From Verrucomicrobiales bacterium (lineage in GTDB: Bacteria > Verrucomicrobiota > Verrucomicrobiia > Methylacidiphilales > JAAUTS01): 40,567 nucleotides of DNA. Positions 771 to 40,265 of the stretch are shown piece after piece. The position numbers were made by a program, and so were the translations under genes. Positions within the stretch are counted from its first letter, which is position 1. Each line of letters opens with the position of its first letter. A model generated the notes under the pieces. That model made no database searches. It was given only the letters and a program-made list of their open reading frames with translations, and was not told the DNA's origin. The DNA lies in assembly GCA_031265105.1 (NCBI GenBank), contig JAISDC010000230.1, positions 1 to 40,567 of the forward strand, read 5' to 3'.

Positions 771-990
771 AATACGAAGCCAAAAAATCTGCCTTTGTTA
801 TCGCTGTTGTTGACGTGGCTGTCTTTATCGAAATTCCATGTGCTGTCGTTGCTGACAATGCGGTCACCGCTGGTGAAGTCGCCGCTGCCGGTGGGGTTGG
901 GAGAACAGTAGTCACTGTCAGCGATTACTTGGCGCTGTTAAACAAATTTTTCTGAAAAGGGAAAGACGTACGTCTTCTAAATCCCGGAGT

Positions 991-2460
991 TCACGGGTAT
1001 TGTTCCAGCCATTTCACGGCGTCCCAAATCTCTTCACCGGTATTCTTCTGTTTTGGTCCGGGTGTGCTGCGACCGTTACGCACATAAGCGGCCAGGATTT
1101 TTTTGAGCCTTTCGGCAATAGCAGGATGTTGTTCGATAATATTGATTTTTTCACCAATATCATCTTCTAAATTATAAAGCTGAAATTTAGGCATGTCGGG
1201 GGTTTCTTTTCCCGGCGCGGGATAAGACCAGCCGCCGGATCCCGGGCACAATTCCAATTTGAATTTTCCTTTCCGGATTGAAAGCGAACCGTTAATACTC
1301 TGATGAACCACATCTTCTCGTACCGCAGTACCGGCGGGATCCAACCAGAGTGGCAAATTACTAACACTATCAACTCCCGCCGATTCCGGCAGCTTGGTTC
1401 CGAAATAATCCGCCATGGTTGCCATAAAATCCGACAGGCAAACCAACTCTTCACAATTACCCCCCGCCTTGATCCGCGCGGGCCAACGGACAATCAGCGG
1501 AATTCGATGTCCGCCTTCATAGATATCCGCTTTATGTCCCCTAAATATATAACTGGGATTATGTCCGGCCGCTAGCAGTTCCTTAAAATCAGCCATGGGG
1601 GAACAGCCGTTGTCTGAAGTATAAATAAGAATGGTATTATTATAAAGATTGAGTTCTTTTAACTTGTTTGTGATCTGCCCGATAACATCATCACATTGAA
1701 GAACAAAATCACCGTATTCATTGACATGGGATTTGCCTCGGAATTGCGGCAATGGCAATATGGGGGTATGCGGCGCGGGAAGCGGGAAGTACAGAAAAAA
1801 CGGTTGACCCTTGTTTTCTTCAATCAGCTTCAATGCTTTTTTTGTAAGATGAGGCAGCACATCCTGATGAACGAAATCGGGAGCCGTTGGTCCCTTCCGC
1901 CAGAATTGTTTCCCCGTATTCGCGGTTTCATGATCCGGCAGCTGGGTAAAACGATCGTTTTCAATATAAATATACGGCGCCATGTCCAGGGATGCGCTGA
2001 TGCCGTAAAAATAATCAAAACCTCTGGTAACGGGGCTGTTTGCTATTTTTCCGGCATAGTTAATGCCCGGGCATGTCTCATAGCCGCTCATGAACTGAAA
2101 GGTTTCTTCTTTTGCAAAATCCATTCCAAGATGCCATTTACCGACCGTCATGGTTTTATAACCATTTTGCCTGAATAAATCGCCTATGGTCATGAGATCT
2201 TTTTCGATGAGAGCGGGCGAATAACCGCTCTGCACATCACGCTTGAGTCTGGACCGCCAGTTATACCGTCCGGTAAGAATACTGTAACGGGAAGGAGTAC
2301 AAACGGCAGAACTTGCATGGGCATCATGAAAGGCAAGTCCATCAGCGCACATTTGATCGAAATTGGGGGTTTTAAATCCCGCGTTTTCGTTAAACGCGGA
2401 AACATCCCCATAGCCCATATCATCGGCCAGCACGTAAATCAAATTGGGAAGATCATTCAT
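991..2460 (-). CDS. Arylsulfatase (Cys-type sulfatase, no signal peptide)
   Basis: LADDMGYGD, formylglycine motif CTPSRYSILTG, GKWHLG, SDNG and GHKADIYEGGHRIP. Markedly more AT-rich than its neighbours. Confidence 0.93.
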   Translation of the reverse strand: MNDLPNLIYVLADDMGYGDVSAFNENAGFKTPNFDQMCADGLAFHDAHASSAVCTPSRYSILTGRYNWRSRLKRDVQSGYSPALIEKDLMTIGDLFRQNGYKTMTVGKWHLGMDFAKEETFQFMSGYETCPGINYAGKIANSPVTRGFDYFYGISASLDMAPYIYIENDRFTQLPDHETANTGKQFWRKGPTAPDFVHQDVLPHLTKKALKLIEENKGQPFFLYFPLPAPHTPILPLPQFRGKSHVNEYGDFVLQCDDVIGQITNKLKELNLYNNTILIYTSDNGCSPMADFKELLAAGHNPSYIFRGHKADIYEGGHRIPLIVRWPARIKAGGNCEELVCLSDFMATMADYFGTKLPESAGVDSVSNLPLWLDPAGTAVREDVVHQSINGSLSIRKGKFKLELCPGSGGWSYPAPGKETPDMPKFQLYNLEDDIGEKINIIEQHPAIAERLKKILAAYVRNGRSTPGPKQKNTGEEIWDAVKWLEQYP

Positions 2461-2533: not shown

Positions 2534-4003
2534 TCAGTCTTCATTTTTTGACAAATTCTTTATATCCCCGGCGCGGACGAGCTTGTAGCTGTCCTTGGCA
2601 TCCTGCATGGTCCAGCCGAGGGCGGCGAGTCGGGCGCGGCATTGGTCGGCGAGTTGCCAGTGTTGTTCTTTTTTCGCCGCCCAGCGTTGGGCCGCCAAAT
2701 CGCGCACCTCGGCGGGCACAGCGTCAGCGACGGGGTCATCGTCAGCGGGCGGCAGGGTGAGGCCGAGGGCGCCGATGACGCGCTGGAAGCCGAGCCAGGC
2801 TGCCGGTGGGTCGGCGAATCGGCCGGCGTCCTTGAGCGCGACGAAGGTGCGGCCGAGCGCCGCGCTGACGTTGAGGTCGTTTTGCAACGCCGCCCACGCG
2901 GGGTGAAACGGGTTGTCCGCTGACAGTGCCGCGGCCCGGTTGACGAGTTGTTCATAGTCAAGCGCCGGCGCGCCCGCTGACAGTGCCGCGGCGGCCCGGG
3001 CGAGTTTTTTCAACGCGACCCGCGCCGCGGCCAGCGACTCCAGCGTGAAGTTCAGCGGCTGGCTGTATTTGCCGGCCAGCAGCACGTAGCGCGTCTCCAT
3101 CGGGGTAAAGCCCCGGCGTTGCAAATCCGCCAGCGTGTAGAGGTTGCCCTCGCTCTTGCTCATCTTGCGGTTTTCAACCAGCAGATGATTGGTGTGAAAC
3201 CAGTGCGCGGCGAACGGCCGGCCGGTCGCCGCCTCGCTCTGGGCGTTTTCGTTCTCGTGATGCGGAAAAATCAAATCCACCCCGCCGCCGTGCAAGTCGA
3301 ACGACTCGCCCAGATAGCGCATACTCATGCAACTGCACTCCAAGTGCCAGCCCGGCCGCCCCTCACCCCACGGCGCGCGCCAGAAATTGTCACCGTCAGC
3401 GGGCTTGCGCGCCTTCCACAGCGCGAAATCGGCCAGCGACTCGCGCTCGTATTCGTCCGCCAGATTCCGGCCGCTGACGGTGGCCGCGCCGCTCGCCCCG
3501 GCGGCCAGCTCGCGTTCTTGCACGCGCGAGAGCTTGCCGTAGTCCGGGAAGGAGGCGAGGCGGAACCACACCGAGCCGTCGTCGGTGCGGTAGGCGTGGT
3601 TTTTCGCCAGCAACGTTTCGACCAGCGCGATTTGCTGCGGAATGTGCGCGACCGCGCCCGGCTCGACATGCGGCGGCAACAGGTTCAGCGCCGCGCAATC
3701 GGCGCGGAACAACTCGCGCCAGCGGTCGGTGAAGACCGTCAGCAGCTCGCCGACCGCCTGCGACTGGCGAATGGTCTTGTCGTCCACGTCGGTGAGGTTG
3801 CGGACGTGTTTGGTGCGCCAGCCCGCCAGCTCCAGCACGCGGCGCAACACATCCTGCGACACGAACGTGCGGAAGTTGCCGATGTGCGCCGGGCCGTAAA
3901 CCGTCGGCCCGCAACAATAGAACCGCACCGTCGCACCGTCAGCGGCGCTGACATTCCTCACGCCGCGGGTCATGGTGTCGTAGAGCTGGACGTGCTGTGG
4001 CAT
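2534..4003 (-). CDS. cysS: Cysteine--tRNA ligase
   Basis: YCCGPTVY, HIGN (HIGH motif), GRPGWHLECS, HGGGVDLIFPHHENE and KMSKS. Confidence 0.97.
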   Translation of the reverse strand: MPQHVQLYDTMTRGVRNVSAADGATVRFYCCGPTVYGPAHIGNFRTFVSQDVLRRVLELAGWRTKHVRNLTDVDDKTIRQSQAVGELLTVFTDRWRELFRADCAALNLLPPHVEPGAVAHIPQQIALVETLLAKNHAYRTDDGSVWFRLASFPDYGKLSRVQERELAAGASGAATVSGRNLADEYERESLADFALWKARKPADGDNFWRAPWGEGRPGWHLECSCMSMRYLGESFDLHGGGVDLIFPHHENENAQSEAATGRPFAAHWFHTNHLLVENRKMSKSEGNLYTLADLQRRGFTPMETRYVLLAGKYSQPLNFTLESLAAARVALKKLARAAAALSAGAPALDYEQLVNRAAALSADNPFHPAWAALQNDLNVSAALGRTFVALKDAGRFADPPAAWLGFQRVIGALGLTLPPADDDPVADAVPAEVRDLAAQRWAAKKEQHWQLADQCRARLAALGWTMQDAKDSYKLVRAGDIKNLSKNED

Positions 4004-4164: not shown

Positions 4165-4887
4165 ATGAAACCGCCCGTCGCCCTCGTCACCGGCAGCGCC
4201 GGGGGACTCGGCGCCGCGCTGGCCAGGCGCCTCGCGCAACACGGCTGGGCCGTCGCCGCGCACTACCGCCATAGCGGGCGGGCCGCCGCCGCGCTGGTGC
4301 AAAGCCTCACCGCCGGCGGCGCCACCGCCGCCGCGTTCCAGGCCGACCTGGCCGTCGAAGCGGAAGCGCAACGCATGGTCGGCGAAGTCATCGCCAGGTT
4401 CCGCCAGCTCGACCTGCTGATCAACAACAGCGGCGTTTATCACGCCAAACCCCTCGCCACACTGTCAGCGGACGAGTGGTTCGAGGGCCTCAACAGCACC
4501 GCCACCGCCGTGTTCTTCACCACCCGCGCCGCGCTGCCGCACCTGGGGAAGGCGGCCAACGGCCGCGTCATCAACCTCGGCGACGCCGGCTGCGAACGGG
4601 TCGGCGCGCGCGACTTGGCCATCAGCTACCACCTTGGCAAGACCGGCGCGTTGATGCTGACCAAATCCTTCGCCCGCGAGGCCGCCGGGCGCGGCGTCAC
4701 CGTCAACATGATTTCGCCCGGCTACCTGGACAACAGCCGGGAGTTGCCCGACCCCGGCGCGATACCCGCCGGCCGCTTCGGCACCGCGGACGATGTCTGG
4801 AACGCGGTCGAGTTTCTCATTAAACCGGCCAGCGGCTACCTTACCGGCGCCAACCTCATCGTCAGCGGCGGGTGGAATTTGCGTTGA
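4165..4887 (+). CDS. Short-chain dehydrogenase/reductase (SDR family)
   Basis: ALVTGSAGGLG Rossmann motif, LINNSG, YxxxK (YHLGK) and VNMISPG. ATG at 4165. Confidence 0.9.
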   Translation: MKPPVALVTGSAGGLGAALARRLAQHGWAVAAHYRHSGRAAAALVQSLTAGGATAAAFQADLAVEAEAQRMVGEVIARFRQLDLLINNSGVYHAKPLATLSADEWFEGLNSTATAVFFTTRAALPHLGKAANGRVINLGDAGCERVGARDLAISYHLGKTGALMLTKSFAREAAGRGVTVNMISPGYLDNSRELPDPGAIPAGRFGTADDVWNAVEFLIKPASGYLTGANLIVSGGWNLR

Positions 4888-5047: not shown

Positions 5048-6232
5048 TCAAAAACCACCGGTCATCTCCGGCGGCAAATCCTTCGGTGTGATGGTGTTGC
5101 CGCCGGCGAGGATGGCGGCGCGCTGGATGCTGTTTTCCAATTCGCGCACGTTGCCGGGCCAGTGGTAGGCGGTGAGGACGGCCAGCGCGTCGGCGGAGAT
5201 TTTCACCGGGCCGCCGTGATTGCGCTGGCGCCATTTGCGCATGAAGAAGGTGACCAATCCGCTGACGTCGCCGCTCCGCATCCGCAGCGGCGGCAGGTTG
5301 ATGCTGAACACGTTCAGCCGGTAGAACAAATCCTCGCGGAATTCCTTGTTGCGCGCGGACGCCCCCAGGTCGCGGTTGGTGGCGGCGATGATGCGGACGC
5401 TGACCCTGACCGGTTGGCGGCCGCCGACGCGCAACACCTCGCCGTCCTGCAAGACGCGCAACAGCTTGGCTTGCACGCCCAGCGGCATCTCGCCGATTTC
5501 GTCGAGGAACAGCGTGCCGCCGTCGCATTGCTCGAAGCGGCCGAGGCGTTGCGCCAGCGCGCCGGTGAAGGCGCCTTTCTCGTGGCCGAACAACTCGCTC
5601 TCCAGCAGGGCTTCGGGGATGGCGGCGCAGTTGATGGCCATGAACAGCGCGCGGTCGCGTTTGCTGTTGGCGTGGATGGCGTGGGCGACGAGTTCCTTGC
5701 CGGTGCCGCTCTCGCCGGTGACCAGCACGGTGGCGTCGGTGGGGGCGACCTGGCCGATGAGTTTGTAAATTTGTTGCATCGCTGACGATGAGCCGATGAT
5801 GCCGCCGCTGTCCGTGCCGGCGCTGACGGTGAGGACATTGTCGGCGCTGAGTTCCCGCGCGGCGCGGAGGGCGCGGCGGAGCAGGTCCTTGAGTTGCGGG
5901 ATTTCAAACGGCTTGAGCGTGTAGTCGAACGCGCCGAGTTTCATGGCCTCGATGGCGGTTTGCGAGGTGCCGTAGGCGGTCATCATGATGACGATTTGGC
6001 GCGGCCTGGCCTGGCGGATTTGGCGCAGCACGTCGAGGCCGTTCTCGCGGCCCAGGCGGATGTCCATGACCACGATGTCGGGTTGTTCTTTCTGCACCAT
6101 GTGCAGACCGTCAGCGCCGTTGGCGGCGGCGAGGACGTTGACGTGGTCCTTGGCGAGCAGGCGCTCGAAGGAGTAATGCACGTCGGTCTCGTCGTCGATG
6201 ATGAGGATTTTTTGTCGCGGCAAGTCGGTCAT
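5048..6232 (-). CDS. Sigma-54-dependent response regulator (NtrC family; receiver + AAA+, no evident C-terminal HTH)
   Basis: Receiver domain (IIDDE, MDIRL, KPF), GESGTGKE, GAFTGA, LFLDEIG, FREDLFYRL and WPGNVRELEN. Confidence 0.93.
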   Translation of the reverse strand: MTDLPRQKILIIDDETDVHYSFERLLAKDHVNVLAAANGADGLHMVQKEQPDIVVMDIRLGRENGLDVLRQIRQARPRQIVIMMTAYGTSQTAIEAMKLGAFDYTLKPFEIPQLKDLLRRALRAARELSADNVLTVSAGTDSGGIIGSSSAMQQIYKLIGQVAPTDATVLVTGESGTGKELVAHAIHANSKRDRALFMAINCAAIPEALLESELFGHEKGAFTGALAQRLGRFEQCDGGTLFLDEIGEMPLGVQAKLLRVLQDGEVLRVGGRQPVRVSVRIIAATNRDLGASARNKEFREDLFYRLNVFSINLPPLRMRSGDVSGLVTFFMRKWRQRNHGGPVKISADALAVLTAYHWPGNVRELENSIQRAAILAGGNTITPKDLPPEMTGGF

Positions 6233-8520: not shown

Positions 8521-9183
8521 ATGGACATTCTTCGCAACATCGCCAAATTTTTTCATGACGGCGGCTGGGCTATGGTGCCGCTGTCGCTCACCTCGCTGGT
8601 CGCGCTGGCCTTCATCCTGGAGCGCGGTGTCGCCTTGCGCCGCGCCAGGGTTATCCCCGATTACCTGTACCGCATGTTGCTCTCCTACCACAGCGGCCAG
8701 CCGCTGGAACCCATCGCCGCCATGATTGGCGTCGGCGACAGCACCATGGCGCGGCTGGTGCGCGTCTGCCTGGAGCACCTGCCGTGGTCGAAGGCGGAAA
8801 ACGCGGAGGCGGTGCAGGTGCGCGCGCGGGCCGAGGTGGTGCAATTGGAGCGCGGCCTGGTGCTGCTGGAAATCATCGTCGGCATCGCGCCGTTGCTGGG
8901 GCTGATGGGCACGGTCAGCGGCATGATAGTGATTTTCACCGATGTCGGCCACCTTGGCGCGGCGAAGCAGACCATGCAAATGGCGCTCGGTATCTCCCAG
9001 GCGTTGAACGCCACCGTCAGCGGCCTGGCCATCGCCATCCCGGCGCTGATCATGCACGGCTACTACAGCCGCAAGGTCGAGGCGCTGGCGGTGGAAATGG
9101 AAAGCCTGTGCATGGATTTTCTGACCAAACTTTACCTGCAACCGGCGTCCGCTGCCGGTGACAAACCCAAAACCGCCCGGTGA
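8521..9183 (+). CDS. exbB: MotA/TolQ/ExbB proton channel protein
   Basis: GGWAMVPL, APLLGLMGTVSGMI and GISQALNATVSGLAIAIP. Confidence 0.9.
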   Translation: MDILRNIAKFFHDGGWAMVPLSLTSLVALAFILERGVALRRARVIPDYLYRMLLSYHSGQPLEPIAAMIGVGDSTMARLVRVCLEHLPWSKAENAEAVQVRARAEVVQLERGLVLLEIIVGIAPLLGLMGTVSGMIVIFTDVGHLGAAKQTMQMALGISQALNATVSGLAIAIPALIMHGYYSRKVEALAVEMESLCMDFLTKLYLQPASAAGDKPKTAR

Positions 9184-9622: not shown

Positions 9623-9979
9623 TCAGCGGTGCCGCGTCATGGTCACGCTGACAAAGCGGGTGGTCGGGATGATAAATTTGCGGACTTCTACCGTGACCGC
9701 GCTGACCTTGAACTCCGTCAGAATCACCGCGCACAAGTCCGCGGCCAGCGTTTCAAGCAACCGGCGGGGCCGCGCGCCGGCGCTGTGTTTGACGGTTTCG
9801 CACACTTGGAAATAATCCACGGTCAGCGCCAGGTCATCGGTGGCGGCGGCGGCAGCGAGCGACGGCGGGGTCAGGGTCAGCGACACTTCCAGCCGCTGCG
9901 GTTGGGCGCGTTCCTCGTCGGTCACGCCGAGGCGGGCGCTGACGGTGAGGCGGTCGATGTGAATTTGGTCGGACGTCAT
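9623..9979 (-). CDS. folB: Dihydroneopterin aldolase
   Basis: LGVTDEERAQPQRL, DDLALTVDY, LLETLA and VEVRK. Confidence 0.92.
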   Translation of the reverse strand: MTSDQIHIDRLTVSARLGVTDEERAQPQRLEVSLTLTPPSLAAAAATDDLALTVDYFQVCETVKHSAGARPRRLLETLAADLCAVILTEFKVSAVTVEVRKFIIPTTRFVSVTMTRHR

Positions 9980-9985
9980 GGTTTT

Positions 9986-12179: not shown

Positions 12180-13040
12180 TCAGAGGTTCAGGGTCTCGTA
12201 AATTTTGCGGGTCGTGGCGGCGCGGTTCAGCGTGTAAAAATGCACGCCGCTGACGCCGTGGTCCACGAGGTCGCGCACCTGCTCGGTCGCCCAATGCGCG
12301 CCCACGCGCGCGACGCCCGCATCGTCAGCGGCGCGCGCGACGGCCTTCAGCAGCGGCGCGGGGAAACGCGCCCCGCCCGCCAGCTCCGCCATGCGCCGCA
12401 TCCCCGCCAGCGTGGTAATCGGCATGATGCCGGCGATGATGGGGACGTTGATGCCGGCCAGCTCGCAGCGTTCGCGGAAATCATAAAAATCGCGGTTGTC
12501 GAAGAACAGTTGCGTGACGAGATAATCCGCGCCGGCGGCCACCTTGGCTTGCAAAAACTCAATCTCGCGCAAGCGGTTCGGCGTGGCGGGATGCCCTTCG
12601 GGAAAGCCCGCGACGCCGATGCCGAAGCGCGGGAAATGTTGCTTGATGAACGCGACCAAATCCGCCGCGTGCGGGAAGTCGCCGCCCGCCGCTGACGGTG
12701 TCCCCGGCGACGGGTCGCCGCGCAAGGCGAGGATGTTGTGAATGCCGTGCCGGTCGTAATGTTCGAGGATGGCGTGGATGGCGTCACGGTCAGCGCCGCC
12801 GCAAGTGAGGTGGGCGACGACCGTCAAGTCCGTCTCCCGCGCCAGCCGCGTGACGAGCCGTTGCGTGCGGTCGCGCGCCGAGCCGCCCGCGCCGTAAGTG
12901 ACACTGACCGCGGCCGGCCGGAGCGGCATCAGCGCGGCGATGGTGTGGAACAACGTCTCCGCCTCCGCCTCGTTTTTCGGCGGGAAAAACTCGAAGCTGA
13001 ACGTCGGCCGGCGGCGGGCTAAAATTTCGCGGAACAACAT
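12180..13040 (-). CDS. metF: 5,10-methylenetetrahydrofolate reductase
   Basis: FSFEFFPPK, VSVTYGAGGS, AHLTC, ILALRGD, TQLFFDN and HFYTLN. Confidence 0.96.
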   Translation of the reverse strand: MLFREILARRRPTFSFEFFPPKNEAEAETLFHTIAALMPLRPAAVSVTYGAGGSARDRTQRLVTRLARETDLTVVAHLTCGGADRDAIHAILEHYDRHGIHNILALRGDPSPGTPSAAGGDFPHAADLVAFIKQHFPRFGIGVAGFPEGHPATPNRLREIEFLQAKVAAGADYLVTQLFFDNRDFYDFRERCELAGINVPIIAGIMPITTLAGMRRMAELAGGARFPAPLLKAVARAADDAGVARVGAHWATEQVRDLVDHGVSGVHFYTLNRAATTRKIYETLNL

Positions 13041-16060: not shown

Positions 16061-16456
16061 ATGGCAGATACTGTAATTTTTACCGCCACCGGTCGCCGCA
16101 AAACCGCCGTGGCCCGCATCAATCTCAAAGCAGGCAAAGGCACGCTGACGGTGAACGGCAAGGCCGCCGACGAGTATTTTTTCACTCCGGAGCAGCGCAT
16201 TGAATTGCGGTTGCCGCTGGTCGTTACCGACAGCCAGAAAAAATTTGACGTCCAGATTCGCGCCGAGGGCGGCGGTCTCCAGGGCCAGGCCGGGGCTTCC
16301 TGCCTGGCGATAGCCCGCGCGCTGGTGCAAGTGGACAAGGAACTCCGCGCCCCGCTGCGGGCGCAGGGTTTGCTAACCCGCGATTCCCGCATGAAGGAGC
16401 GCAAAAAATCCGGCCAGCCGGGCGCCCGCAAGCGGTTCCAGTTCTCCAAGCGCTGA
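16061..16456 (+). CDS. rpsI: 30S ribosomal protein S9
   Basis: ATGRRKTAVAR, GGGLQGQAGA and LTRDSRMKERKKSGQPGARKRFQFSKR. Confidence 0.98.
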   Translation: MADTVIFTATGRRKTAVARINLKAGKGTLTVNGKAADEYFFTPEQRIELRLPLVVTDSQKKFDVQIRAEGGGLQGQAGASCLAIARALVQVDKELRAPLRAQGLLTRDSRMKERKKSGQPGARKRFQFSKR

Positions 16457-16587
16457 TGGTGGCAGAGTGCCCAAGCCGGGTTGCCCAAATCTCCTCAGTC
16501 GTCATTCCGAGCGGAGCAAAAAAGCAATCCGTGTTCATTTGTGTCCATTTGCTTCACTTCGTTCGGAGCTTGAGGCGGCGTGTAATT

Positions 16588-18885: not shown

Positions 18886-18946
18886 GCGGGGACAGGTTAA
18901 CAGGTTGCCGCCGGGGAACCAGCCGGAATTCGCGCCGCGCGCGCCG

Positions 18947-22661: not shown

Positions 22662-22702
22662 AAACGGTGACGGATTAGTAATTCATCCCGCTAGCGACAT
22701 CG

Positions 22703-24896: not shown

Positions 24897-24960
24897 TAAA
24901 TAGTCGCTGATGGTGAAATGTCTAGCAATAAATTCGCTGTTAGAGGTAATGGTGCTTCAC

Positions 24961-24992: not shown

Positions 24993-25025
24993 GAATGCAG
25001 CTTGCGCTGACGGTGATGGATTCGC

Positions 25026-27967: not shown

Positions 27968-28008
27968 TCACCATCAGCGGCAACGGAGCCGCTGATGGTC
28001 ACGAAATT
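27968..28008. repeat. 41-bp hairpin direct repeat, copy R2
   Basis: TCACCATCAGCGGCAACGGAGCCGCTGATGGTCACGAAATT; perfect 12-bp stem with a 6-nt loop. Confidence 0.92.
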
Positions 28009-29095: not shown

Positions 29096-29136
29096 TCATC
29101 GTCAGCGGCAGTGGAGTCGCTGAGGGTCACGAAATT
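29096..29136. repeat. 41-bp hairpin direct repeat, copy R3
   Basis: TCATCGTCAGCGGCAGTGGAGTCGCTGAGGGTCACGAAATT; 35/41 identical to R2. Confidence 0.9.
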
Positions 29137-29416: not shown

Positions 29417-31360
29417 TTATTTCTTCTTATCATCATCCACAATCTCCGCGTCAATCACATCATCGTCAGCGGACTTCGCCGACTGCGGCTCACCGTCAGC
29501 GGGCGCGGCACCGGCAGCGGCACCGCCATGTTGCGCGTTCACATTCGCGGACGCTTGCTTGTACAACTCCGTCGAAACCTCCTGAATCTTCACCGTCAGC
29601 GCCTCGGTCGCCGACTTGATAGCGTCGCTGTCCTCACCCTTGAGAGTCTCGCGCAACTTGCCGACCAAATCCTCAACAGCCTTCTTGCCGTCCTCGCCAA
29701 TCTTGTCACCATTATCCTTCACCAACTTCTCCGCCTGGAACGCCAAGTTGTCGCCCTGATTGCGAATCTCCACCTTCTCCTTCGCCTTCTTGTCATCCTC
29801 AGCGTGCGCCTCGGCCTCCTTCACCATCCGCTCAATCTCGCTCTTGTCCAACCCGCTGCTGCCGGTGATGGAAATCTTCTGCTCCTTGTTCGTCCCCAAA
29901 TCCTTGGCGCTGACGTTGAGGATGCCGTTGGCGTCAATGTCAAACGTCACCTCGATTTGCGGCACCCCGCGCGGCGCCGGCGGAATGCCATCCAGATGAA
30001 ACTTGCCCAGCGACTTGTTATCGCGCGACAACGGCCGCTCGCCCTGCAAAATGTGAATTTCCACGCCCGGCTGACTGTCCGACGCCGTGCTGAACACATT
30101 GTTCTTCTTGGTCGGAATCGTCGTATTGCGCGGAATCATCGGCGTCGACTGGCCGCCTAACGTCTCAATACTCAGCGTCAGCGGCGTCACATCCAGCAAC
30201 AACACATCATCCACCTCGCCGCGCAACACACCGCCCTGCACCGCCGCGCCAATCGCGACCACCTCGTCCGGGTTCACGCCCTTGTGCGGCTCCTTGCCCA
30301 CGATGCGCCGCGCGATTTCCAAAATCTTCGGCATCCGCGTCATGCCGCCGACCAGCACCAATTCATTGATGCCACTGGCAGCGAGCTTCGCGTCGCGCAA
30401 ACACGCCTCGACCGGCTTGATGGTTCGCTCCGCCAGCGCCTCGGTCAGTTGCTCCAACTTCGCGCGCGTCAGCTTCAGTTGAATATGCTTCGGCCCGGTC
30501 TGGTCCGCCGTGATGAACGGCAAATTAATCTCGAACTCCTGCGACGACGACAGCGCGATTTTCGCCTTCTCCGCCTCCTCCTTGATGCGCTGCATGGCGT
30601 CCGACTGACTGTGCAAATCAATGCCGCTGTCCTTCTTGAACTCGCTGACGATGTGGTCAATCAGCGCGTTGTCCCAGTCATCGCCGCCGAGATGCGTGTC
30701 ACCGTTAGTGGCCAGCACCTCGAACACCCCGTCAGCGATGGACAACGCCGAAATATCGAACGTCCCGCCGCCGAGGTCATACACCGCGATTTTCTCATCC
30801 TTGGTCTTTTCGAGACCATAAGCCAACGACGCCGCCGTCGGCTCATTAATAATCCGCAACACCTCAAGCCCGGCAATCTTCCCCGCATCCTTCGTCGCGT
30901 GCCGCTGACTATCATTAAAATAAGCGGGCACCGTAATCACCGCCTGCGTAATCTTCTCGCCCAATTTCGCCTCAGCATCAGCCTTCAACTTGGACAAAAT
31001 AAAAGAAGAAATTTCCTCCGGCGTATAAACCTTCGCCTCCCCGCTGACCGTGACCTCCACCGCCGCCGCCCCATTCTTCCCCTCGACGACCTTATACGGC
31101 AACCGTTTAATCTCCTCCCCAATCTCCGAAAACTTCCGTCCAATCAACCGCTTCACCGAAAAAACCGTATTTTTTGAATTCGTCACCGCCTGACGTTTCG
31201 CCGCCTGTCCGACGAGTCGTTCCCCATTCTTAGTGAACGCCACCACCGACGGCGTAGTCCGCGCCCCCTCGGCATTCTCAAGAACGACCGCCTTCCCACC
31301 CTCCATAACCGCCATGCACGAATTAGTCGTGCCCAAATCAATACCCAAAACTTTACTCAT
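29417..31360 (-). CDS. dnaK: Molecular chaperone DnaK
   Basis: [45 protein letters not shown] and [15 protein letters not shown]. Confidence 0.99.
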
Positions 31361-32589: not shown

Positions 32590-32732
32590 TAAAGTTTTTG
32601 CCGAGAGACGTACATCTCCCTTCCGCTGACGATATATTTCACCATCAGCGGCTAAAATGCCGCTGAGCATCTTCCCGCGCCATACGAAAAAGACTTTGCA
32701 CGGCGAAGGGGGGTGCGGTAGGTTAACAAGTC

Positions 32733-33267: not shown

Positions 33268-33341
33268 AGAAAGGAGGCAGCGGTCATTATATGTTGCCAA
33301 ACCACTCCCGCTGACCGTGCCCTTCACCATCAGCGACATCG

Positions 33342-34397
33342 TCACGATGGAAGATTTTCCAGCAAAACACTCAGCGACACGTCAAGAAACCCATCGTCAC
33401 CGTCAGCGGCGAAAATCACGCGGTCTTGCGGGCCGTCGGGCAGAAAGGCGCTGTCGGTGAGTGTTGCGTGGAACCAGCACACCACCGGCGTGTTCATCAT
33501 TTGCGCGACATGGATGCCGCCGCTGTCGCCGCCGACGTGCAGTTTGGCGCGCGCGATGACCGCGGCGAGTTCGGCGACGTCAAGCTCGCCGGCAAAAATT
33601 TTCCACGGCGTGAAATCCAGCAGCGCCAGCAGCCGGCGGGTTTTCTCCGCCTCGCGCGCGGTCGGGGCGGTGGAGATGACCAGCGGCATGTCAGGCCGCT
33701 GACGGTGAAACTGGTTCAAAAACGCGGCGAGTCGCGCGGGCTGCGGCTCGCGCCGGTCAGCGGTGGTGAACGGGCTGAGATGCATGAAACCGCGTTGGCC
33801 GCCGAGCAATCGGTCAACGCGCCGCTCAACGTCAGCGGGCACGGTCACGTCGAAACGCCGCGCGGCGCTGACGGCGAGGCCGGCGTTTTGCAGAAACCGC
33901 AAATGCAGCCGCCACGCGCTCATGCCGCGGTGCGGTGATTCGGCGCGATGGTTGAAACACAGCCGCCAATGCAACGGCGGGCGCTGACGGTGAGGATGGC
34001 GCGGATAAAACGGCACGCGCCCCAGCCGCAGCGGCGCGCCGGTGGCGAGCGTCAGCCACGCGGCGCGGTCTTGCGCCGCAAAGCTGATGGTGACGTCGAA
34101 TTTTTCCCGGCGCAATTCCAGCAGCAGCGGCAGCGATTGCCACAGCGGCGGCGACTTGGGAAAACGCGGATACCCCCGCGCCCGGTCAATCCACGGACAC
34201 AGCCGCAACAGTTCGACGACATGCGCCGCCGTGATAACCTGCAATTCCGCGCGCGGCCAGAAATCCCGCAACGCGCGCAACGCCGGCAGCGTGTGCACCG
34301 TGTCGCCGAGGAAGCCGAGGTCAATCACCGCGACCTTGCGCGCGGCGCGGGCCAGCTGGAAAAAATTTCGCGCGCTACCTGGTAACGGCTGGCACAT
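33342..34397 (-). CDS. Glycosyltransferase family 9 (heptosyltransferase-like)
   Basis: GFLGDTVHTLPAL, LRREKFD and GGDSGGIHVA. Confidence 0.9.
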   Translation of the reverse strand: MCQPLPGSARNFFQLARAARKVAVIDLGFLGDTVHTLPALRALRDFWPRAELQVITAAHVVELLRLCPWIDRARGYPRFPKSPPLWQSLPLLLELRREKFDVTISFAAQDRAAWLTLATGAPLRLGRVPFYPRHPHRQRPPLHWRLCFNHRAESPHRGMSAWRLHLRFLQNAGLAVSAARRFDVTVPADVERRVDRLLGGQRGFMHLSPFTTADRREPQPARLAAFLNQFHRQRPDMPLVISTAPTAREAEKTRRLLALLDFTPWKIFAGELDVAELAAVIARAKLHVGGDSGGIHVAQMMNTPVVCWFHATLTDSAFLPDGPQDRVIFAADGDDGFLDVSLSVLLENLPS

Positions 34398-35232: not shown

Positions 35233-36045
35233 CTAAAAATTATCAGGTTGCTCCAATCTTTTGTTATAGCGCGCGTTAAATGCCGCCGCCTTGATCCGGC
35301 GCCACCAGTACGCCGGTAATCCCGTGTTGATATAACGCCGGAAAAAACGCCCGATGGTTTTGCGATTGGCCGGCAAACGGCGAACGCGTTCACGTTCGTT
35401 ACCGATGGAGCTGGTTTCGCTGACTGTATCAGTGCCGATGACATACGGCACCAGTGTCCGCGCGCGCATAATGCCGTAGGCGCGAAATTGCAGCCACTGG
35501 TCGGCAACCTGCCACACCGGATGCAACGCCGCCACCATCCGGCGCGCGGCGGCATTGGTAATAAAATAGCCGTGCGTGCCGCCGCAATGTTTGGCGCGAA
35601 TCTCCGCGACCAGGTGCGTGTCGTCCACCGGCCGCGCGCCGCGTTGCGCGTAATGTCGTATGTAGGTCAGCAGAATCAACGCCTCACGGTCAGCGGGATA
35701 AAGTCGCCGCAACTTTTCCACCACCGGCAGTGTCTCCGGTTTCAATTTGGCATCGTCCTCCAAAATCAGCGCGTGACCGATGTCTGCGGCAAGCATCCGC
35801 CGGTAGATATTCAAATGACTAAGCGCGCAGCCAATTTCCGGCAAACTCAGGTCGTTGCCATAACGCAGCGCCTTCCGGCGGTCATAGTTTGCCGCCAGCT
35901 CCGCCGCTGACAGTGAGCGAACGTCCACCGCCGCGACGAGTTCAAACGGTATGCCGAGTGCCGCGAGATGTCGCGTAATGTATTCGCGCCGCGCTGACGC
36001 TGACGCAAGATTGATAACCAAACATTTGACCGCGCCGCGGTTCAC
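35233..36045 (-). CDS. Glycosyltransferase family 25 (start uncertain; frame open to 36081)
   Basis: LVINL...RR, EIGCALSH, ALILEDD and GTHGYFIT. Confidence 0.9.
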   Translation of the reverse strand: MNRGAVKCLVINLASASARREYITRHLAALGIPFELVAAVDVRSLSAAELAANYDRRKALRYGNDLSLPEIGCALSHLNIYRRMLAADIGHALILEDDAKLKPETLPVVEKLRRLYPADREALILLTYIRHYAQRGARPVDDTHLVAEIRAKHCGGTHGYFITNAAARRMVAALHPVWQVADQWLQFRAYGIMRARTLVPYVIGTDTVSETSSIGNERERVRRLPANRKTIGRFFRRYINTGLPAYWWRRIKAAAFNARYNKRLEQPDNF

Positions 36046-36277
36046 GGGGCGCCTCCGCTGACGGTGACTTTGTCTGACCAATGATTATTGCCATTGAACC
36101 GGCGAAATGCCGCCGCGTCGCGGAATGGAACTGCCGGTACCCGGCCCGTCATGGCATATCGTCTTGATTGAGGCGCGACCATTTATCACTACATTTTTTA
36201 TCACGGCTTCGATTTATATCAAGCGCGTCATAACTGCCATTTGCTTGCGGCTGCCATGCCAGCCAAACAAATACCCG

Positions 36278-36314: not shown

Positions 36315-37007
36315 GTGAGCAAACAATTCATCAGCATCGTGGCCTGGGGATTTCTCGTTGGCGGCGCTAACGCGCAGTTAACGCCAACGCAACATGCCGC
36401 GCTGGTTGACGAAATGCGCCAGCTCAGCGCCCGGCGCATTGCCTACAACCAGGGCTGGCAGCCGCCCGGTGCCGCCAAAGCCTGGGCGATGGATTGCTCC
36501 AACACTTCCCGGTACATTTACCAAACCGTCTTCGGCCTGCAACTGCCGCGCACCGCTTCCGACCAATATTACGCCTTGAAACAAGTGAAGCGCATTGTTT
36601 ACGCGCCCCGGCTGGCCAACGGCCGGGTGGACACCGAGGCGCTGCTCAGCCAGTTGCGTTCCGGTGATCTGTTGTTCTGGCAATGGACCTATGACATCGA
36701 GCGCGACCCGCCGATCACGCACGTGATGGTTTATCTCGGCCGCACCGCCGACGGCACGCCGAAAATGGCCGGCTCCGCCAGCCGTTCCAAGGGCGAGCAA
36801 ACCAACCGCGGCGGCGTCAATGTTTATGTCTTTGATCCCAACGCCAGCATGGGCGGGGTGAAAAATATCTTCGGCGACTACATCCGCCGCGGCGAATTCG
36901 TCGGCTTCGGCCGCGTCATCAAGCAGGAACCGATCAGCGGCGCCCAGACCGCTGACAGTGTCGGCGGGTATCGCCAGACTGTACCCGCCGTGATGCGGGT
37001 CAATTGA
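36315..37007 (+). CDS. NlpC/P60 (C40) family cell-wall peptidase, exported
   Basis: Signal peptide, MDCSN, LPRTASDQY, GDLLFW and THVMVYLG. Confidence 0.88.
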   Translation: MSKQFISIVAWGFLVGGANAQLTPTQHAALVDEMRQLSARRIAYNQGWQPPGAAKAWAMDCSNTSRYIYQTVFGLQLPRTASDQYYALKQVKRIVYAPRLANGRVDTEALLSQLRSGDLLFWQWTYDIERDPPITHVMVYLGRTADGTPKMAGSASRSKGEQTNRGGVNVYVFDPNASMGGVKNIFGDYIRRGEFVGFGRVIKQEPISGAQTADSVGGYRQTVPAVMRVN

Positions 37008-37148: not shown

Positions 37149-40100
37149 TTAGAACTGATGCCGGTAGCCGAGGTTCAGGTTCCACGGCACGGTGGTGTGG
37201 TCGCCGAAGATGGCGTCGTATTCCAGGCGCAACTGGTCGAAGGTGGTGATTTGCCACTGGACGCCGGCGCCGCCGAGGAAATACAGGCCGTCGGTATGCA
37301 CGCGCCACACATCGTCAGCGTCGCCGCCGATGTGGACTTTGTTGCCCGCGCTGATTTGCTCCAGCGCGCCGCCGCGCAGATACGGTTGCAAGGTCTGTCC
37401 CTGGTCGCCGAGCTTGAAAGTCCAGCCGCCGCGCACGTTCGCGGCCAACTGGCCAATGTCAGCGGCGTTGACGCGCACGGTCGCCACGTCGCTGGAGTAA
37501 TTGCCGTTGAACAGCCGCAGATACGCGGCCTGCACCGACGGCTCGACAAACGCGCCGCCCGCAAAATCAAAGCGCTTGCCCGCTGACAGTGCCGCGCCGC
37601 CCGCCCAGTTTTTGAAGTCCGCGCGGTCACGGAAATTCACGTCATTGGCGGCGCGCGCGTCGAACGAGTTCTCGGCGTACTGTCCCTTCAGCACCAGGTC
37701 GGCGAACCAGCCCGCCTGATTCAGCCAGGTGCCGTAAAAGCCGCCGTAAAAACTGTTCGTGTCGCCGTCGCCGTTGTTCTTGAAATCATGCCGCGCGCCG
37801 CCGTAGCCGACGAAATAACCGAAGGTCAGCGAGTTGGCGGCGTCGAGCCGCCAGGTCATGTCCGCGCCGAGGTCGATGCCGTAAATCATGTCGGTGAATT
37901 TCTCGACGCCGCTGATGTTGAGCTTCGTGTCGGCCTGGCGCCCGTAGGAACGCGCCCAGAAATCCACGCCGTGATCGCCCTCCTGCCGCCCGTAGGCGAT
38001 GTAGTCCTCGATGCTCTGTTCCGCGCGGAAGCGCGTTTCCGCCAGCCGCCCGCGCAGGCTGTCGAGTTGCGCGAACCATGCCAGCGGCGCCGACGCCGCG
38101 ATGTTCAAAATCGCGTTCGCCGCGCTCATGGTTTTCACGCCGCTGAGCGTCCAGTTTTGCCCGTCGGTCGCCAAGTCATATTTGTACATGCCGGAGTACA
38201 ACGAGCCGCCGTTAAGCGTGAAAGTCGCGCCACTGACACCGCTGATGGTGATAATATCGGTGGCCGCCAGCGCGCCGCCGCTCTTGCCGCTCTTGTCGAT
38301 GAACAGCGTGGTGGCGCCGGAGCTGTCACCGTTGATGAACACGCGGTCAACAATCGGCGCGCCGCCGTCCATGCGCGCGGTCATGTGCAGGGACGAACCG
38401 TCGCCGCCGAGGTAGTCGCCGTACACCGTCAGCGTGCTTTGCGTGTTGCCGTTGCCGAACCGAATCGCACCGAGGTTGGTCACGCCCGCCGAACCGGCGC
38501 GGCCGAATTGCGCGTTCGTGTCGCTGAGGGTGACTTGCGCGCGGAAGGCAATGGTCGTGCTGCCGACGTAGTCGTTGCTCCCGCTGATAACGGTATTGCC
38601 GTTGAAGGTGACGTTCAATTCCTTGGTGCTCGCCAGCGCGCCGAGCCGGACATCGCCGTTCAATTGCAAATCGGGATAATCACCGTCACCGAACGCGAGC
38701 GTGCCGCCGACGTTGAGCCGCGCGCGCCCGTCGTCCACCAGGTTAAGCACCCCGGACGAACCGGCGTTCTGCGCGACGTTCAGGTTGCCGCTGACGGTGA
38801 GTTCGCTGTTATCGATGCGCAACGAGCCGCTACCGACCGGCGCGAAATTCAAGTCACCGTTCACCACCAGCCGGGCGTCCCGTTCGAGAATCACCGTCAC
38901 GTCCGAACCGACACCCTCAGCGACGGTCATGTTATTCACCGTCAGCGTCGAGTTGCGCGAGACGACCGTGGTACCGCTCGCCGCCACGCCACCAGCCAGG
39001 GCAAAGTTACCGACCCTGACCGTGGAGTAACGATCAACACCCAACCACCCCGTCGCGTCCGCGCCTGAGGCCAGCGTCAGATTGCCCGCGGTCAGCGTGG
39101 AATAATCCAACACGTCAAGCGACGCCCACGCATTAGTCCCGGACGCGCCGACGATGTCGCCGGCGAAAATCAGCGTCGAGTGATTGGCCGCGCCCAGCCA
39201 AGCATGGGAGTTTTCGCCGGTTGCCAGATGGTTGGTACCGGTGCCGAGAAATCTTGCGCTGCCGATGTGCAGGCCGAATTGCGTGTAGGAATTTGATCCC
39301 TCGGAAGCATACAGCAAGCCGCTGTTGATGAAGCGCGCACTGACAAAATCCGTGCTCGGCGATTCAATATACACACCACCGCCGCTGTTGTCCAAATGGC
39401 CGATGCTCAAATCACCGTTGTTCGTCCATGATGACGAGTCTTCAACATACACAGCGTAGTACCCGCCGCCGTCATAGCTGATGGTGGCGCTGTTGGTGAC
39501 CAGCGTGCTGTTGTCATACAAATAAATGTGGCCATCCGCGAAGGAACTCCACGTGGAACCATCATCGCCGGACATGTCCAGCGCGCCGCCGACCGTGACC
39601 CGTCCGCTGCCGCTGACGAAGACATAACTGCCCGTGCGAAGGCGTAAGTCGCCATCATTGCGCATGGTCGCCGTGTCGGCGACTTGCAGGATACCGTACG
39701 TATTAATGTAGTTATAAGTGTTGGTTCCGCCGGTGCGAAGACTTTTGCCGGACAACTCCAGCGCGCCGAGATTATGCCACTCGCCGTTGCCGCTAACGGT
39801 GACGTATGCGTCGCCACCGTAGGCCTCCCAAGTGTTGTTGTTAATGAGGGAGCTGTGATCGGTGCCATAAATCCTCGACAGCGCGCCTTCGGTGGTGAAG
39901 GAGCCGTCGCGGATAACAAATTCCGTGCCGGTACCGGAATTGGCGGTGAGCTGGTAGCTGCCGCCGTCCACGAACAAATTGGAAATGAGCACCGGCACGG
40001 TGCTGCTGACGGTGGGATATACCCAACTGTTGGAAATATAGGCGTTATCGTGGTAGCGATTACCTTCATCGCCGGGGATGCCGCTGCGATAATATGAAAT

Positions 40101-40265
40101 GCCATTGTAATTATACCACATGCCTTCGGTGTCCTCCCAGTTCACCCTGTCGCCGATATAAAATGTGCCGGTTGGCCACCATTCATAATCATCCGCTCGC
40201 GCTGACAGTGACAGGGCGCTGACGGCAGCCAGCACCGCGATTTTTCCAAACCAATATTTACTCAT
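37149..40265 (-). CDS. Autotransporter (type Va) outer-membrane protein with Gly/Asn/Ser-rich beta-helical passenger
   Basis: Signal peptide, repetitive passenger, GDYLGGDGS..DRVFINGDSSG autochaperone-like region, and beta-barrel (FWARSYG, VEPSVQ, LQPYLRG) ending LNLGYRHQF. Confidence 0.93.
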   Translation of the reverse strand: MSKYWFGKIAVLAAVSALSLSARADDYEWWPTGTFYIGDRVNWEDTEGMWYNYNGISYYRSGIPGDEGNRYHDNAYISNSWVYPTVSSTVPVLISNLFVDGGSYQLTANSGTGTEFVIRDGSFTTEGALSRIYGTDHSSLINNNTWEAYGGDAYVTVSGNGEWHNLGALELSGKSLRTGGTNTYNYINTYGILQVADTATMRNDGDLRLRTGSYVFVSGSGRVTVGGALDMSGDDGSTWSSFADGHIYLYDNSTLVTNSATISYDGGGYYAVYVEDSSSWTNNGDLSIGHLDNSGGGVYIESPSTDFVSARFINSGLLYASEGSNSYTQFGLHIGSARFLGTGTNHLATGENSHAWLGAANHSTLIFAGDIVGASGTNAWASLDVLDYSTLTAGNLTLASGADATGWLGVDRYSTVRVGNFALAGGVAASGTTVVSRNSTLTVNNMTVAEGVGSDVTVILERDARLVVNGDLNFAPVGSGSLRIDNSELTVSGNLNVAQNAGSSGVLNLVDDGRARLNVGGTLAFGDGDYPDLQLNGDVRLGALASTKELNVTFNGNTVISGSNDYVGSTTIAFRAQVTLSDTNAQFGRAGSAGVTNLGAIRFGNGNTQSTLTVYGDYLGGDGSSLHMTARMDGGAPIVDRVFINGDSSGATTLFIDKSGKSGGALAATDIITISGVSGATFTLNGGSLYSGMYKYDLATDGQNWTLSGVKTMSAANAILNIAASAPLAWFAQLDSLRGRLAETRFRAEQSIEDYIAYGRQEGDHGVDFWARSYGRQADTKLNISGVEKFTDMIYGIDLGADMTWRLDAANSLTFGYFVGYGGARHDFKNNGDGDTNSFYGGFYGTWLNQAGWFADLVLKGQYAENSFDARAANDVNFRDRADFKNWAGGAALSAGKRFDFAGGAFVEPSVQAAYLRLFNGNYSSDVATVRVNAADIGQLAANVRGGWTFKLGDQGQTLQPYLRGGALEQISAGNKVHIGGDADDVWRVHTDGLYFLGGAGVQWQITTFDQLRLEYDAIFGDHTTVPWNLNLGYRHQF

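Follow-up and report, generated by a model that had tools for sequence, protein, structure and literature searches.

We describe here a non-palindromic word of 11 letters, CGCTGACGGTG, that recurs throughout a 40,567-nucleotide stretch of bacterial DNA (the window) and throughout the genome to which the stretch belongs, and which we regard, with a probability of about one half, as a new and independently evolved uptake signal resembling the DNA uptake sequences (DUS) of the Neisseriaceae and the uptake signal sequences (USS) of the Pasteurellaceae. That the word is a signal at the level of DNA, maintained by drive or by selection, we hold with high confidence. The window, positions 1 to 40,567 of contig JAISDC010000230.1 from a Verrucomicrobiales bacterium (assembly GCA_031265105.1), is one whole contig (C285) of a genome, G000, of 2,995,901 bases in 289 contigs, with an estimated completeness of 92.3% and a GC content of 60.9%. 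A GroEL search placed this genome in the Verrucomicrobiota, at 84% identity to metagenome-assembled genomes, and thereby confirmed the phylum that an earlier reading of the window from its letters alone (the sequence-only reading) had called probable; the genus itself is uncultured and known only from metagenome-assembled genomes. The four other species of the genus are referred to as G001 to G004, and the genomes of sister genera as G005 to G008. The motif is a DNA-level signature of this one verrucomicrobial genus and does not result from coding.

In the window, the exact word occurs 27 times, 17 times on the forward and 10 times on the reverse strand, where 0.05 copies are expected; none of 100 dinucleotide shuffles reached this number, and our recount reproduced every one of the 27 coordinates given in the sequence-only reading. 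The same holds for the ten copies of the variant CGCTGACAGTG (0.02 expected), for which that reading had left the strand unstated: those at 913, 4460, 19605 and 20406 lie on the reverse strand. Its estimate of about 15 further variants corresponds to 10 copies of CGCTGACGATG and 7 of CGCTGATGGTG, 17 in all. Together with 3 copies of CGCTGACGGCG and the canonical copies, these make up the 47 sites of the degenerate form CGCTGAYGRYG (0.37 expected), and relaxing the pattern further to CGCTGAYRRYG gives 61 sites, which are located in the housekeeping genes cysS, groEL and dnaK, in genes for a sigma-54 regulator, a heptosyltransferase and an autotransporter, as well as in spacers (Table 1).

The enrichment is a property of the whole genome and is not confined to the region of the window. 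G000 holds 2054 copies (1013 forward, 1041 reverse; 0.69 per kb) on 276 of its 289 contigs, which makes the word by far the commonest 11-mer of the genome (its neighbours aside, the runner-up has 555 copies), and the CGCTGAYGRYG sites take up 1.36% of the sequence. Among 1953 open reading frames (ORFs), called with a simple, crude codon-likelihood caller, 892 contain the canonical word and 1236 contain some member of the family, and the 20 richest genes hold just 9% of the sites. One could nevertheless speculate that the word is a by-product of protein sequence, of codon usage, of a recurring peptide (L-T-V or T-V-S, for example), or of a mobile mini-repeat: the high-GC codons CTG, ACG and GTG make parts of it common, a codon shuffle predicts about 2540 in-gene occurrences of its core hexamer, and as many as 28 family sites are found in single genes for giant repeat proteins. 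Against this stand the 1817 in-gene copies, to be compared with 180 ± 10 when synonymous codons are shuffled within genes with the proteins kept, and with 11.7 ± 2.4 when the order of codons is shuffled (20 replicates each). The enrichment thus persists under the codon-preserving control proposed along with the sequence-only reading, by a factor of 10 over the synonymous and of 175 over the codon-order shuffle, and, since the synonymous shuffle retains only 180 of the 1817 copies, the word stands about 10-fold above what the proteins require; the proteins in turn are enriched about 15-fold for the peptides that the word encodes.

The reading frames and the surroundings of the word point the same way. 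Genes of G000 use it in five frames and on both gene strands (antisense T-V-S, 677 copies; sense L-T-V, 489; sense A-D-G, 477; antisense P-S-A, 132; antisense H-R-Q-R, 41), with no site in the frame CGC-TGA, which would read a stop, and while 88% of the copies lie inside called genes, 238 are intergenic or overlap a gene end. Non-coding DNA alone contains 210 canonical copies where a second-order Markov model expects 0.6, an enrichment of about 350-fold, and sister genera of similar codon usage have between 0 and 27 copies. When 2049 copies were aligned with 25 bases of flank on either side, the logo that the sequence-only reading had suggested building showed, outside the word, only codon periodicity, a G at position -2 (66%) and an A at position +12 (54%), with no flanking position carrying more than 0.43 bits; because the flanks are unconserved, the motif is a free-standing 11- to 14-mer and not part of a longer repeat. 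In this it also differs from repetitive extragenic palindromic sequences and miniature inverted-repeat transposable elements (MITEs), which have conserved, structured flanks and lie between genes. The shuffles, the frames, the flanks and the non-coding enrichment together refute an origin as a coding or mobile-repeat by-product, to which we assign next to no probability, and the tests leave standing no explanation at the level of coding, mRNA or mobile elements.

The ratio of observed to expected counts grows with the length of the word, from 4.8 for CGCTGA and 15 for the 8-mer to 175 for the 11-mer and 541 for the 12-mer with the added A. Positions 1, 3, 4 and 5 are strict, single-change variants at these positions being enriched at most 14-fold; the tolerated changes are 8A (237-fold), 2A (98-fold), 9A (83-fold), 8C (80-fold), 9C (59-fold), 11C (55-fold) and 7T (35-fold). 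The motif can accordingly be written G-N-CGCTGACGGTG-A, in which the 5' core, CGCTG(A), is strict and the 3' half is looser.

Outside G000, the exact word is abundant in three other species of the genus (1770, 1384 and 1081 copies), is present 33 times in G001, and drops to 0-27 copies in 36 genomes of other genera of the same family and order. The scarcity in G001 reflects a dialect, CGCTAAYGRCGA, found in the survey of relatives that the sequence-only reading had recommended. This genome (86% complete) carries the dialect at 0.58 per kb; the top words in a 400-kb sample of it (GC content 54.9%) are CGCTAATGGCGA, CGCTAACGGCGA, CGCTAATGACGA and CGCTAACGGTGA, and the anchored profile reads G-N-CGCTAA-Y-G-R-C-G-A, with A at position +12 in 73% of copies. 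The pattern CGCTRAYGRYG, which covers both dialects, occurs 3759, 1623, 3348, 2651 and 2410 times in the five species of the genus, at most 170 times in the 36 other relatives, and at most 429 times in 400 further genomes of the phylum (185 genera), the maximum being reached in a genome of 7.2 Mb. Nor do the sister genera represented by G005 and G006 have an abundant word of their own in 200-kb samples, where the top 11-mer has 8-9 copies as compared to 182 in an equal sample of G000. Given this restriction to the genus, and sister genera without the word, the motif appears to have arisen at the base of the genus. The 33 copies of the G type in G001 cluster on contig C2 at 4-19 kb and on contig C11 at 24-32 kb. 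We rejected recent transfer as their source; these stretches are GC-rich giant repeat-protein genes with only 65-76% identity to G000 DNA. Viral contigs were also scanned with one 14-mer extension of the word: among the 80 stretches listed out of 118, 79 hold one match and one holds two.

The relationship between the two dialects becomes clearer when orthologous genes are compared, for which we used 441 kb of G001 and 279 kb of G002. Codon-by-codon alignment of 177 one-to-one orthologues of G000 and G001 (211,725 nt), which are 77.0% identical overall and 60.2% identical at third positions, contains 229 family sites in G000 and 128 in G001. Forty of these coincide in both position and strand, where chance predicts 0.07, and at 34 of the 40 position 5 is G in G000 and A in G001; moreover, 68 of the 128 sites in G001 overlie a word in G000 that is at most one mismatch away from the G-type family, as against 0.18% of controls shifted in the same frame. 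Many sites must therefore be older than the split between the two species, with the dialect changed in place, and the alignments indicate that the switch converted sites that already existed. In the window itself, DNA-level alignment to G001 and G004 is limited to groES/groEL and dnaK, where G000 and G004 share two of seven motif columns and G001 shares none of the seven, a small sample.

Between more closely related species, the word is conserved beyond its surroundings. In 137 aligned orthologues of G000 and G002 (176,301 nt, 94.3% identity), 102 canonical sites are common to both genomes, 31 are private to G000 and 25 to G002. The motif sites defined in G000 diverge by 2.9%, compared to 5.7% overall, and by 4.0% compared to 8.8% at third positions. 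This halving of divergence indicates that the word is actively maintained, synonymous positions included. As a separate observation, divergence between these two species is highly mosaic, ranging from 0.4% to 39% per gene at third positions and with a variance among 300-nt windows of 32 times the Poisson value, a pattern that frequent homologous exchange could produce, as could the mis-pairing of some paralogues.

Two kinds of DNA lack the motif, namely stretches of foreign appearance and the genes under the strongest constraint. Gaps of more than 5 kb number 22 in G000, as against 8.1 expected under random placement, the longest being associated with a DUF2397/DUF2398 cluster, an AAA_13 island and rpoB/rpoC. 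The longest motif-free stretch, of 15.4 kb, is an island with a GC content of 54% that holds a four-gene cluster (C261:4107-12331; DUF3323+DUF2399, SbcC-like, DUF2398 and DUF2397), which we take to be a Wadjet-type anti-plasmid defence island; a second gap of about 15 kb is an island with a GC content of 50-52% containing an AAA_13 ATPase gene and ORFs without a Pfam match. This is the pattern expected of a signature that accumulates slowly where substitutions are tolerated.

Islands of this type also bear on the idea that the motif was built by biased mismatch correction or gene conversion, for instance by very-short-patch (VSP) repair tied to a sequence-specific methyltransferase. Many of the abundant variants do differ from the motif by transitions, and Vsr was found in three of the five members of the genus (G001, G002 and G004, with 73% identity between the proteins of the first two) but not in G005 to G008, the four genomes of sister genera. 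Yet transversion variants (8C, 9C, 6C and 11C) are enriched as much as transitions, and G000, which has the highest motif density, has neither Vsr nor a C5-methyltransferase (PF00145) in the 92.3% of its genome that is available. The modules of C5-methyltransferase and Vsr (G002 C96:8997-13993, G001 C18:100543-102207) are themselves variable and sit in motif-poor islands: that of G002 is absent from the G000 assembly, which matches one flank only (96-97% identity), and the methyltransferases next to Vsr in G001 and G002 have 28% identity and are unrelated. Known effects of VSP repair on word frequencies are small. We therefore rejected this explanation, on the lack of Vsr and C5-methyltransferase in G000 and the paucity of motifs in the modules, and regard it as very improbable. 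The G002 module also encodes a HATPase_c_3 protein and a receiver-domain protein.

A different intracellular role would be that of a Chi-like signal, at which an AddAB-type helicase-nuclease switches from degradation to the loading of RecA and which thereby marks DNA as self. Chi words, like the motif, are lineage-specific, non-palindromic and over-represented in core DNA, and G000, G002 and G003 have two adjacent PDDEXK_1 ORFs of about 1000 aa that resemble AddAB. As Chi words and the oriented, abundant FtsK-orienting polar sequences (KOPS, or architecture-imparting sequences) are both expected to be polar, we inferred the direction of replication from GC skew, whose sign was used to orient contigs of 8 kb or longer. 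Canonical copies in G000 show a small excess on the G-rich strand, 909 against 663 (58%), that is no greater than composition gives, 40 pooled composition-matched 11-mers having 58.6% of their copies there. The strand skew per contig is slightly over-dispersed, with a mean absolute value of 0.43 compared to 0.39 ± 0.02 (chi-square 336, 276 df, p = 0.008). The strong replichore polarity that would argue for such signals was thus not seen: with 57-58% of copies on the G-rich strand in G000 and 61% in G001, polarity is weak and far from the behaviour of Chi, with roughly 75% or more, or of KOPS, which are more strongly co-oriented with replication still. Known Chi words are also shorter, with 5-8 nt and single-digit enrichment, compared to an 11- to 12-mer enriched 175- to 541-fold here; RecC was not found in G000, and G001 (86% complete) has no PDDEXK_1 match, yet carries its dialect at 0.58 per kb. 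We consequently rejected both Chi and KOPS on polarity and gene content (RecC, AddAB), and consider a Chi-like role improbable. In G001, two contigs (C8:1-200000 and C9:1-200000) have an unusually strong GC skew, of about +0.1 and -0.1, respectively, in each 20-kb bin, from which ori and ter could readily be mapped once the genome is closed.

Taken as a set, the features of the motif, a non-palindromic 11- to 12-mer at about 1 per kb, in either orientation and several frames, with a strict core, a dialect, reduced divergence and gaps in foreign DNA, have their only close precedent in the uptake sequences of the Neisseriaceae and Pasteurellaceae, and for this reason we favour biased uptake via a pilus-associated receptor. 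DUS, which are read by the minor pilin ComP, are likewise short (10-12 nt) and non-palindromic, occur about once per kb and make up 1-2% of the genome; they too are found on both strands, in several frames within genes and between genes, are strict in the inner core and more permissive at outer positions, form dialects at the species level and leave gaps in foreign DNA. USS share the preponderance of copies in genes, dialects that differ by few letters (Hin- and Apl-type) and the occurrence of different dialects at orthologous positions in diverged species; Bakkali et al. in 2004 and Redfield et al. in 2006 are said to have found Hin- and Apl-type USS at such positions. The likeness does not extend to the letters, since, as the sequence-only reading had noted, the motif matches neither system, being unrelated both to the DUS GCCGTCTGAA and to the USS AAGTGCGGT, as these are given in the available text of 10.1101/2025.10.24.684340 and PMC5217627, respectively. 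It also belongs to another phylum, has no assigned ComP homologue, lacks AT-rich flanking segments and shows no terminator pairs. Another hyper-abundant short word found inside and outside genes, HIP1 of cyanobacteria, is a palindrome, which the motif is not.

According to the available text of two sources, enriched uptake motifs of 9-12 nt are known only in the Neisseriaceae and Pasteurellaceae (PMC12616744; 10.1101/2025.10.24.684340); the former states that sequence-specific uptake has been known for more than 40 years from these two proteobacterial families only and names PpdA/ComN as the predicted USS receptor. Our literature search brought up no uptake-like motif in organisms other than these two families, although wider surveys of motifs may exist in supplements, and no account of the present motif, the papers listed with the exact word bearing titles on unrelated subjects; a search for 'DNA uptake sequence' together with Verrucomicrobia gave nothing relevant by title or abstract.

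If the motif is an uptake signal, a receptor at the cell surface, most likely a minor subunit of a type IV pilus or competence apparatus, would bind double-stranded DNA bearing the word, and fragments so recognized would preferentially enter via the secretin and ComEC, be loaded by DprA, and recombine. The resulting bias in uptake, whether as molecular drive alone or together with selection, could then fix point mutations that create the word wherever the protein tolerates them, and a shift in receptor specificity in one lineage (position 5 from G to A, position 10 from T to C) would have converted existing sites in place. It is still debated whether uptake tags in general come about through the molecular drive that a biased uptake machine exerts or because cells are selected to take up their own DNA. 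Uptake of DNA, its dependence on the motif and the identity of the reader are inferences in this scheme. The most specific form of the proposal, that this is the first DUS system outside the Proteobacteria, that it emerged de novo at the base of the genus, and that its specificity later switched from CGCTGA..TG to CGCTAA..CG at many orthologous sites of the sampled genome, we put forward tentatively, as somewhat short of an even chance.

The gene content of G000 is in keeping with such a route. It has ComEC (a 774-aa frame), DprA, secretins, six matches to the T2SSE family of ATPases, including a PilT-like pair, and 14 ORFs with a prepilin-type N-terminus. Of the competence genes that the sequence-only reading had suggested looking for (comEC, comEA, dprA, pilQ and minor pilins), comEC, dprA, secretins and pilin-like genes are present, together with PilB/PilT-type ATPases, and comEA was not found. 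Three of the pilin-like ORFs are conserved in the genus and divergent in the sisters (on C135, 228 aa; on C243, 215 aa; on C150, 340 aa).

Several observations weigh against uptake as the explanation. ComEC, DprA, the secretins, the ATPases and the pilin-like genes are equally present in the motif-less G005 and G006 and hence cannot account for the origin of the motif. A search of five genomes for ComEA with the HHH_3 and TIGR00426 profiles did not find it, the sole match, to a Tex-like ORF of about 800 aa, scoring below the cut-off of TIGR00426. Comparison of the 14 pilin-like ORFs with the pilin loci of G001, G005 and G006 singled out no pilin as cleanly genus-specific, as might be sought in a receptor. 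In contrast to DUS, the motif is denser in coding (about 0.73 per kb) than in non-coding DNA (about 0.40 per kb), and its core hexamer CGCTGA, with 14,150 copies or 4.7 per kb, is denser than any known uptake signal. Motif density and G000/G002 divergence are uncorrelated (rho 0.10, p 0.28). G001 has a small but real polarity: on two contigs with a GC skew of about ±0.1, its dialect is found 153 times on the G-rich and 99 times on the other strand (61%), compared to 218 and 225 (49%) for position-permuted controls. Finally, about half of DUS and USS are reported to lie within predicted terminators, according to the available part of one source (10.1101/2025.10.24.684340), and this hallmark, sought genome-wide in the form of terminators or inverted pairs, showed no enrichment: neighbours at most 150 bp apart in G000 comprise 458 direct and 346 inverted pairs (187 convergent, 159 divergent). 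The inverted intergenic pairs which the sequence-only reading had listed among the hallmarks amount, in the window, to a single one, at 21963/22025, and a role of inverted pairs as terminators is unsupported, this pair forming a 13-bp stem with a 45-nt loop and no T-run. What that reading had proposed as an uptake signal has thus held up with respect to the DNA-level tests, the dialect and the phylum, and has not done so for ComEA and the inverted-pair hallmark, with competence genes that occur in motif-less sisters as well.

These same observations leave room for a protein acting inside the cell. In line with the alternative that the sequence-only reading had named, a genome-wide protein-binding site, the motif could be the binding site or 'self' tag of a genus-specific intracellular protein, such as one that organises the nucleoid or chromosome or one of a defence system by which tagged DNA is spared, and be kept by selection; its abundance, its independence from coding, its restriction to the genus, the dialect, the slower divergence and the gaps at islands fit such a reader equally well, and the competence genes, ComEA not being found, do not set the genus apart from its sisters. 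No candidate protein was identified for this role, however, and no nucleoid or defence factor known to us requires a particular 11- to 12-mer at 0.7-1.9 per kb in either orientation. The spacing of the motif is irregular, as seen from the excess of gaps above 5 kb, and the closest precedents for the whole set of features are uptake sequences. On balance we consider an intracellular reader unlikely, while taking it seriously as an alternative to uptake.

Should the uptake reading be correct, self-DNA recognition in natural transformation would have originated independently for a third time, in another phylum. Such an origin could be dated, because the sister genera lack the motif, and a switch that took place inside a single genus would allow receptor and motif to be followed as they evolved together; the dialect switch is recent and lies at orthologous sites in species of a genus that are 77% to 94% identical. 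A third case would also offer a natural contrast for finding the receptor. It would further imply transformation, with a built-in species barrier, as a route of DNA exchange among uncultured environmental or host-associated Verrucomicrobiota. Genetic tools could use the motif as a handle, and genomes of the genus could be binned with it as a marker. Even without a function in uptake, an 11- to 12-mer that is enriched 175- to 541-fold and kept at synonymous sites would point to an unknown genome-wide DNA-reading system.

Table 1 Motif-family sites in the window. Canonical denotes CGCTGACGGTG; three- and four-letter peptides give the reading across the site, and ORFs are those of the simple ORF caller
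Type	Position	Strand	Context	Orientation in gene	Peptide
Canonical	3391..3401	-	cysS	sense	A-D-G
Canonical	3472..3482	+	cysS	antisense	T-V-S
Canonical	3934..3944	-	cysS	sense	A-D-G
Canonical	5821..5831	+	sigma-54 response regulator gene	antisense	T-V-S
Canonical	9012..9022	-	ORF 8515-9180(+)	antisense	T-V-S
Canonical	9937..9947	+	ORF 9626-9985(-)	antisense	T-V-S
Canonical	12690..12700	+	ORF 12183-13124(-)	antisense	P-S-A
Canonical	16143..16153	+	ORF 15959-16453(+)	sense	L-T-V
Canonical	19892..19902	+	ORF 19276-20076(+)	sense	L-T-V
Canonical	20623..20633	+	ORF 20108-21082(+)	sense	A-D-G
Canonical	20685..20695	+	ORF 20108-21082(+)	sense	L-T-V
Canonical	21604..21614	+	ORF 20883-21938(+)	sense	L-T-V
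Canonical	21963..21973	+	intergenic; left arm of the window's only intergenic inverted pair		
Canonical	22025..22035	-	intergenic; right arm of the 21963/22025 pair (13-bp stem, 45-nt loop, no T-run)		
Canonical	23349..23359	+	intergenic per our own gene calls		
Canonical	23951..23961	-	ORF 23916-24956(-)	sense	A-D-G
Canonical	25005..25015	+	intergenic, immediately downstream of groEL		
Canonical	26210..26220	+	groEL	antisense	T-V-S
Canonical	29491..29501	-	dnaK	sense	A-D-G
Canonical	29591..29601	-	dnaK; motif also at this aligned position in G004	sense	L-T-V
Canonical	33398..33408	-	heptosyltransferase gene	sense	A-D-G
Canonical	33697..33707	+	heptosyltransferase gene	antisense	H-R-Q-R
Canonical	33982..33992	+	heptosyltransferase gene	antisense	H-R-Q-R
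Canonical	36056..36066	+	ORF 35236-36084(-)	antisense	H-R-Q-R
Canonical	38424..38434	-	autotransporter gene	sense	L-T-V
Canonical	38789..38799	+	autotransporter gene	antisense	T-V-S
Canonical	38937..38947	-	autotransporter gene	sense	L-T-V
Variant CGCTGACAGTG	913..923	-	intergenic		
Variant CGCTGACGATG	2737..2747	-	cysS	sense	
Variant CGCTGACAGTG	2918..2928	+	cysS	antisense	
Variant CGCTGACAGTG	2975..2985	+	cysS	antisense	
Variant CGCTGACAGTG	4460..4470	-	ORF 4084-4884(+)	antisense	
Variant CGCTGACGATG	4857..4867	-	ORF 4084-4884(+)	antisense	
Variant CGCTGACGATG	5780..5790	+	sigma-54 regulator gene	antisense	
Variant CGCTGACGATG	12320..12330	-	ORF 12183-13124(-)	sense	
Variant CGCTGATGGTG	16451..16461	+	intergenic; final site ahead of the motif-free transposase stretch		
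Variant CGCTGACGGCG	18942..18952	-	ORF 18157-19026(-); earliest site beyond the transposase stretch	sense	
Variant CGCTGACGATG	19449..19459	-	ORF 19276-20076(+)	antisense	
Variant CGCTGACAGTG	19605..19615	-	ORF 19276-20076(+)	antisense	
Variant CGCTGACAGTG	20406..20416	-	ORF 20108-21082(+)	antisense	
Variant CGCTGACGGCG	20954..20964	-	ORF 20883-21938(+)	antisense	
Variant CGCTGACAATG	21707..21717	-	ORF 20883-21938(+)	antisense	
Variant CGCTGATAGTG	21769..21779	-	ORF 20883-21938(+)	antisense	
Variant CGCTGATGGTG	21839..21849	-	ORF 20883-21938(+)	antisense	
Variant CGCTGACGATG	22698..22708	-	intergenic per our own gene calls		
Variant CGCTGATGGTG	24905..24915	+	ORF 23916-24956(-)	antisense	
Variant CGCTGACAATG	25292..25302	-	groEL	sense	
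Variant CGCTGATGGTG	27969..27979	-	intergenic		
Variant CGCTGACGATG	29097..29107	-	intergenic		
Variant CGCTGACGATG	29461..29471	-	dnaK	sense	
Variant CGCTGACGATG	30643..30653	+	dnaK; also at this aligned position in G004	antisense	
Variant CGCTGATGGTG	32640..32650	-	intergenic		
Variant CGCTGATGGTG	33325..33335	-	intergenic		
Variant CGCTGACGGCG	33866..33876	+	heptosyltransferase gene	antisense	
Variant CGCTGACAGTG	35905..35915	+	ORF 35236-36084(-)	antisense	
Variant CGCTGACAGTG	36950..36960	+	ORF 36315-37004(+)	sense	
Variant CGCTGACGATG	37310..37320	-	autotransporter gene	sense	
Variant CGCTGACAGTG	37581..37591	+	autotransporter gene	antisense	
Variant CGCTGATGGTG	38240..38250	+	autotransporter gene	antisense	
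Variant CGCTGATAACG	38582..38592	+	autotransporter gene	antisense	
Variant CGCTGACAGTG	40200..40210	+	autotransporter gene	antisense	

Two genes of the window deserve mention beside its sites. An IS4/Tn5-like transposase gene (16624-18042, forward strand; Tnp_DNA_bind and DDE_Tnp_1 domains) lies inside a motif-free stretch of 2.5 kb (16,461-18,942), and a gene for an autotransporter of 1040 aa (37149-40271, reverse strand), with Autotransporter beta-domain, autochaperone and pertactin-like domains, carries nine motif-family sites in both orientations. Elsewhere, the giant repeat-protein genes reach 18.9 kb (G000 C107:11546-30401, with relatives on C240, C266, C261, C79 and C94, and in G001 on C2 at 7-19 kb); they are GC-rich and 65-76% identical across species, and in G001 they contain most of the few G-type words.

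A second repeat family of G000, of which the window has no member, consists of 82 arrays of the octamer GAGCGCGT in 70 contigs, with 1-14 overlapping 14-mer matches each (for example C1:9589-9643, C120:6514-6584 and C143:13485-13603). The flanks of these arrays are conserved and partly inverted, with GAGTCATA on one side and TATGACT on the other, and several arrays stand at contig ends; they look like a MITE-like element with an octamer array of variable number that breaks the assembly.

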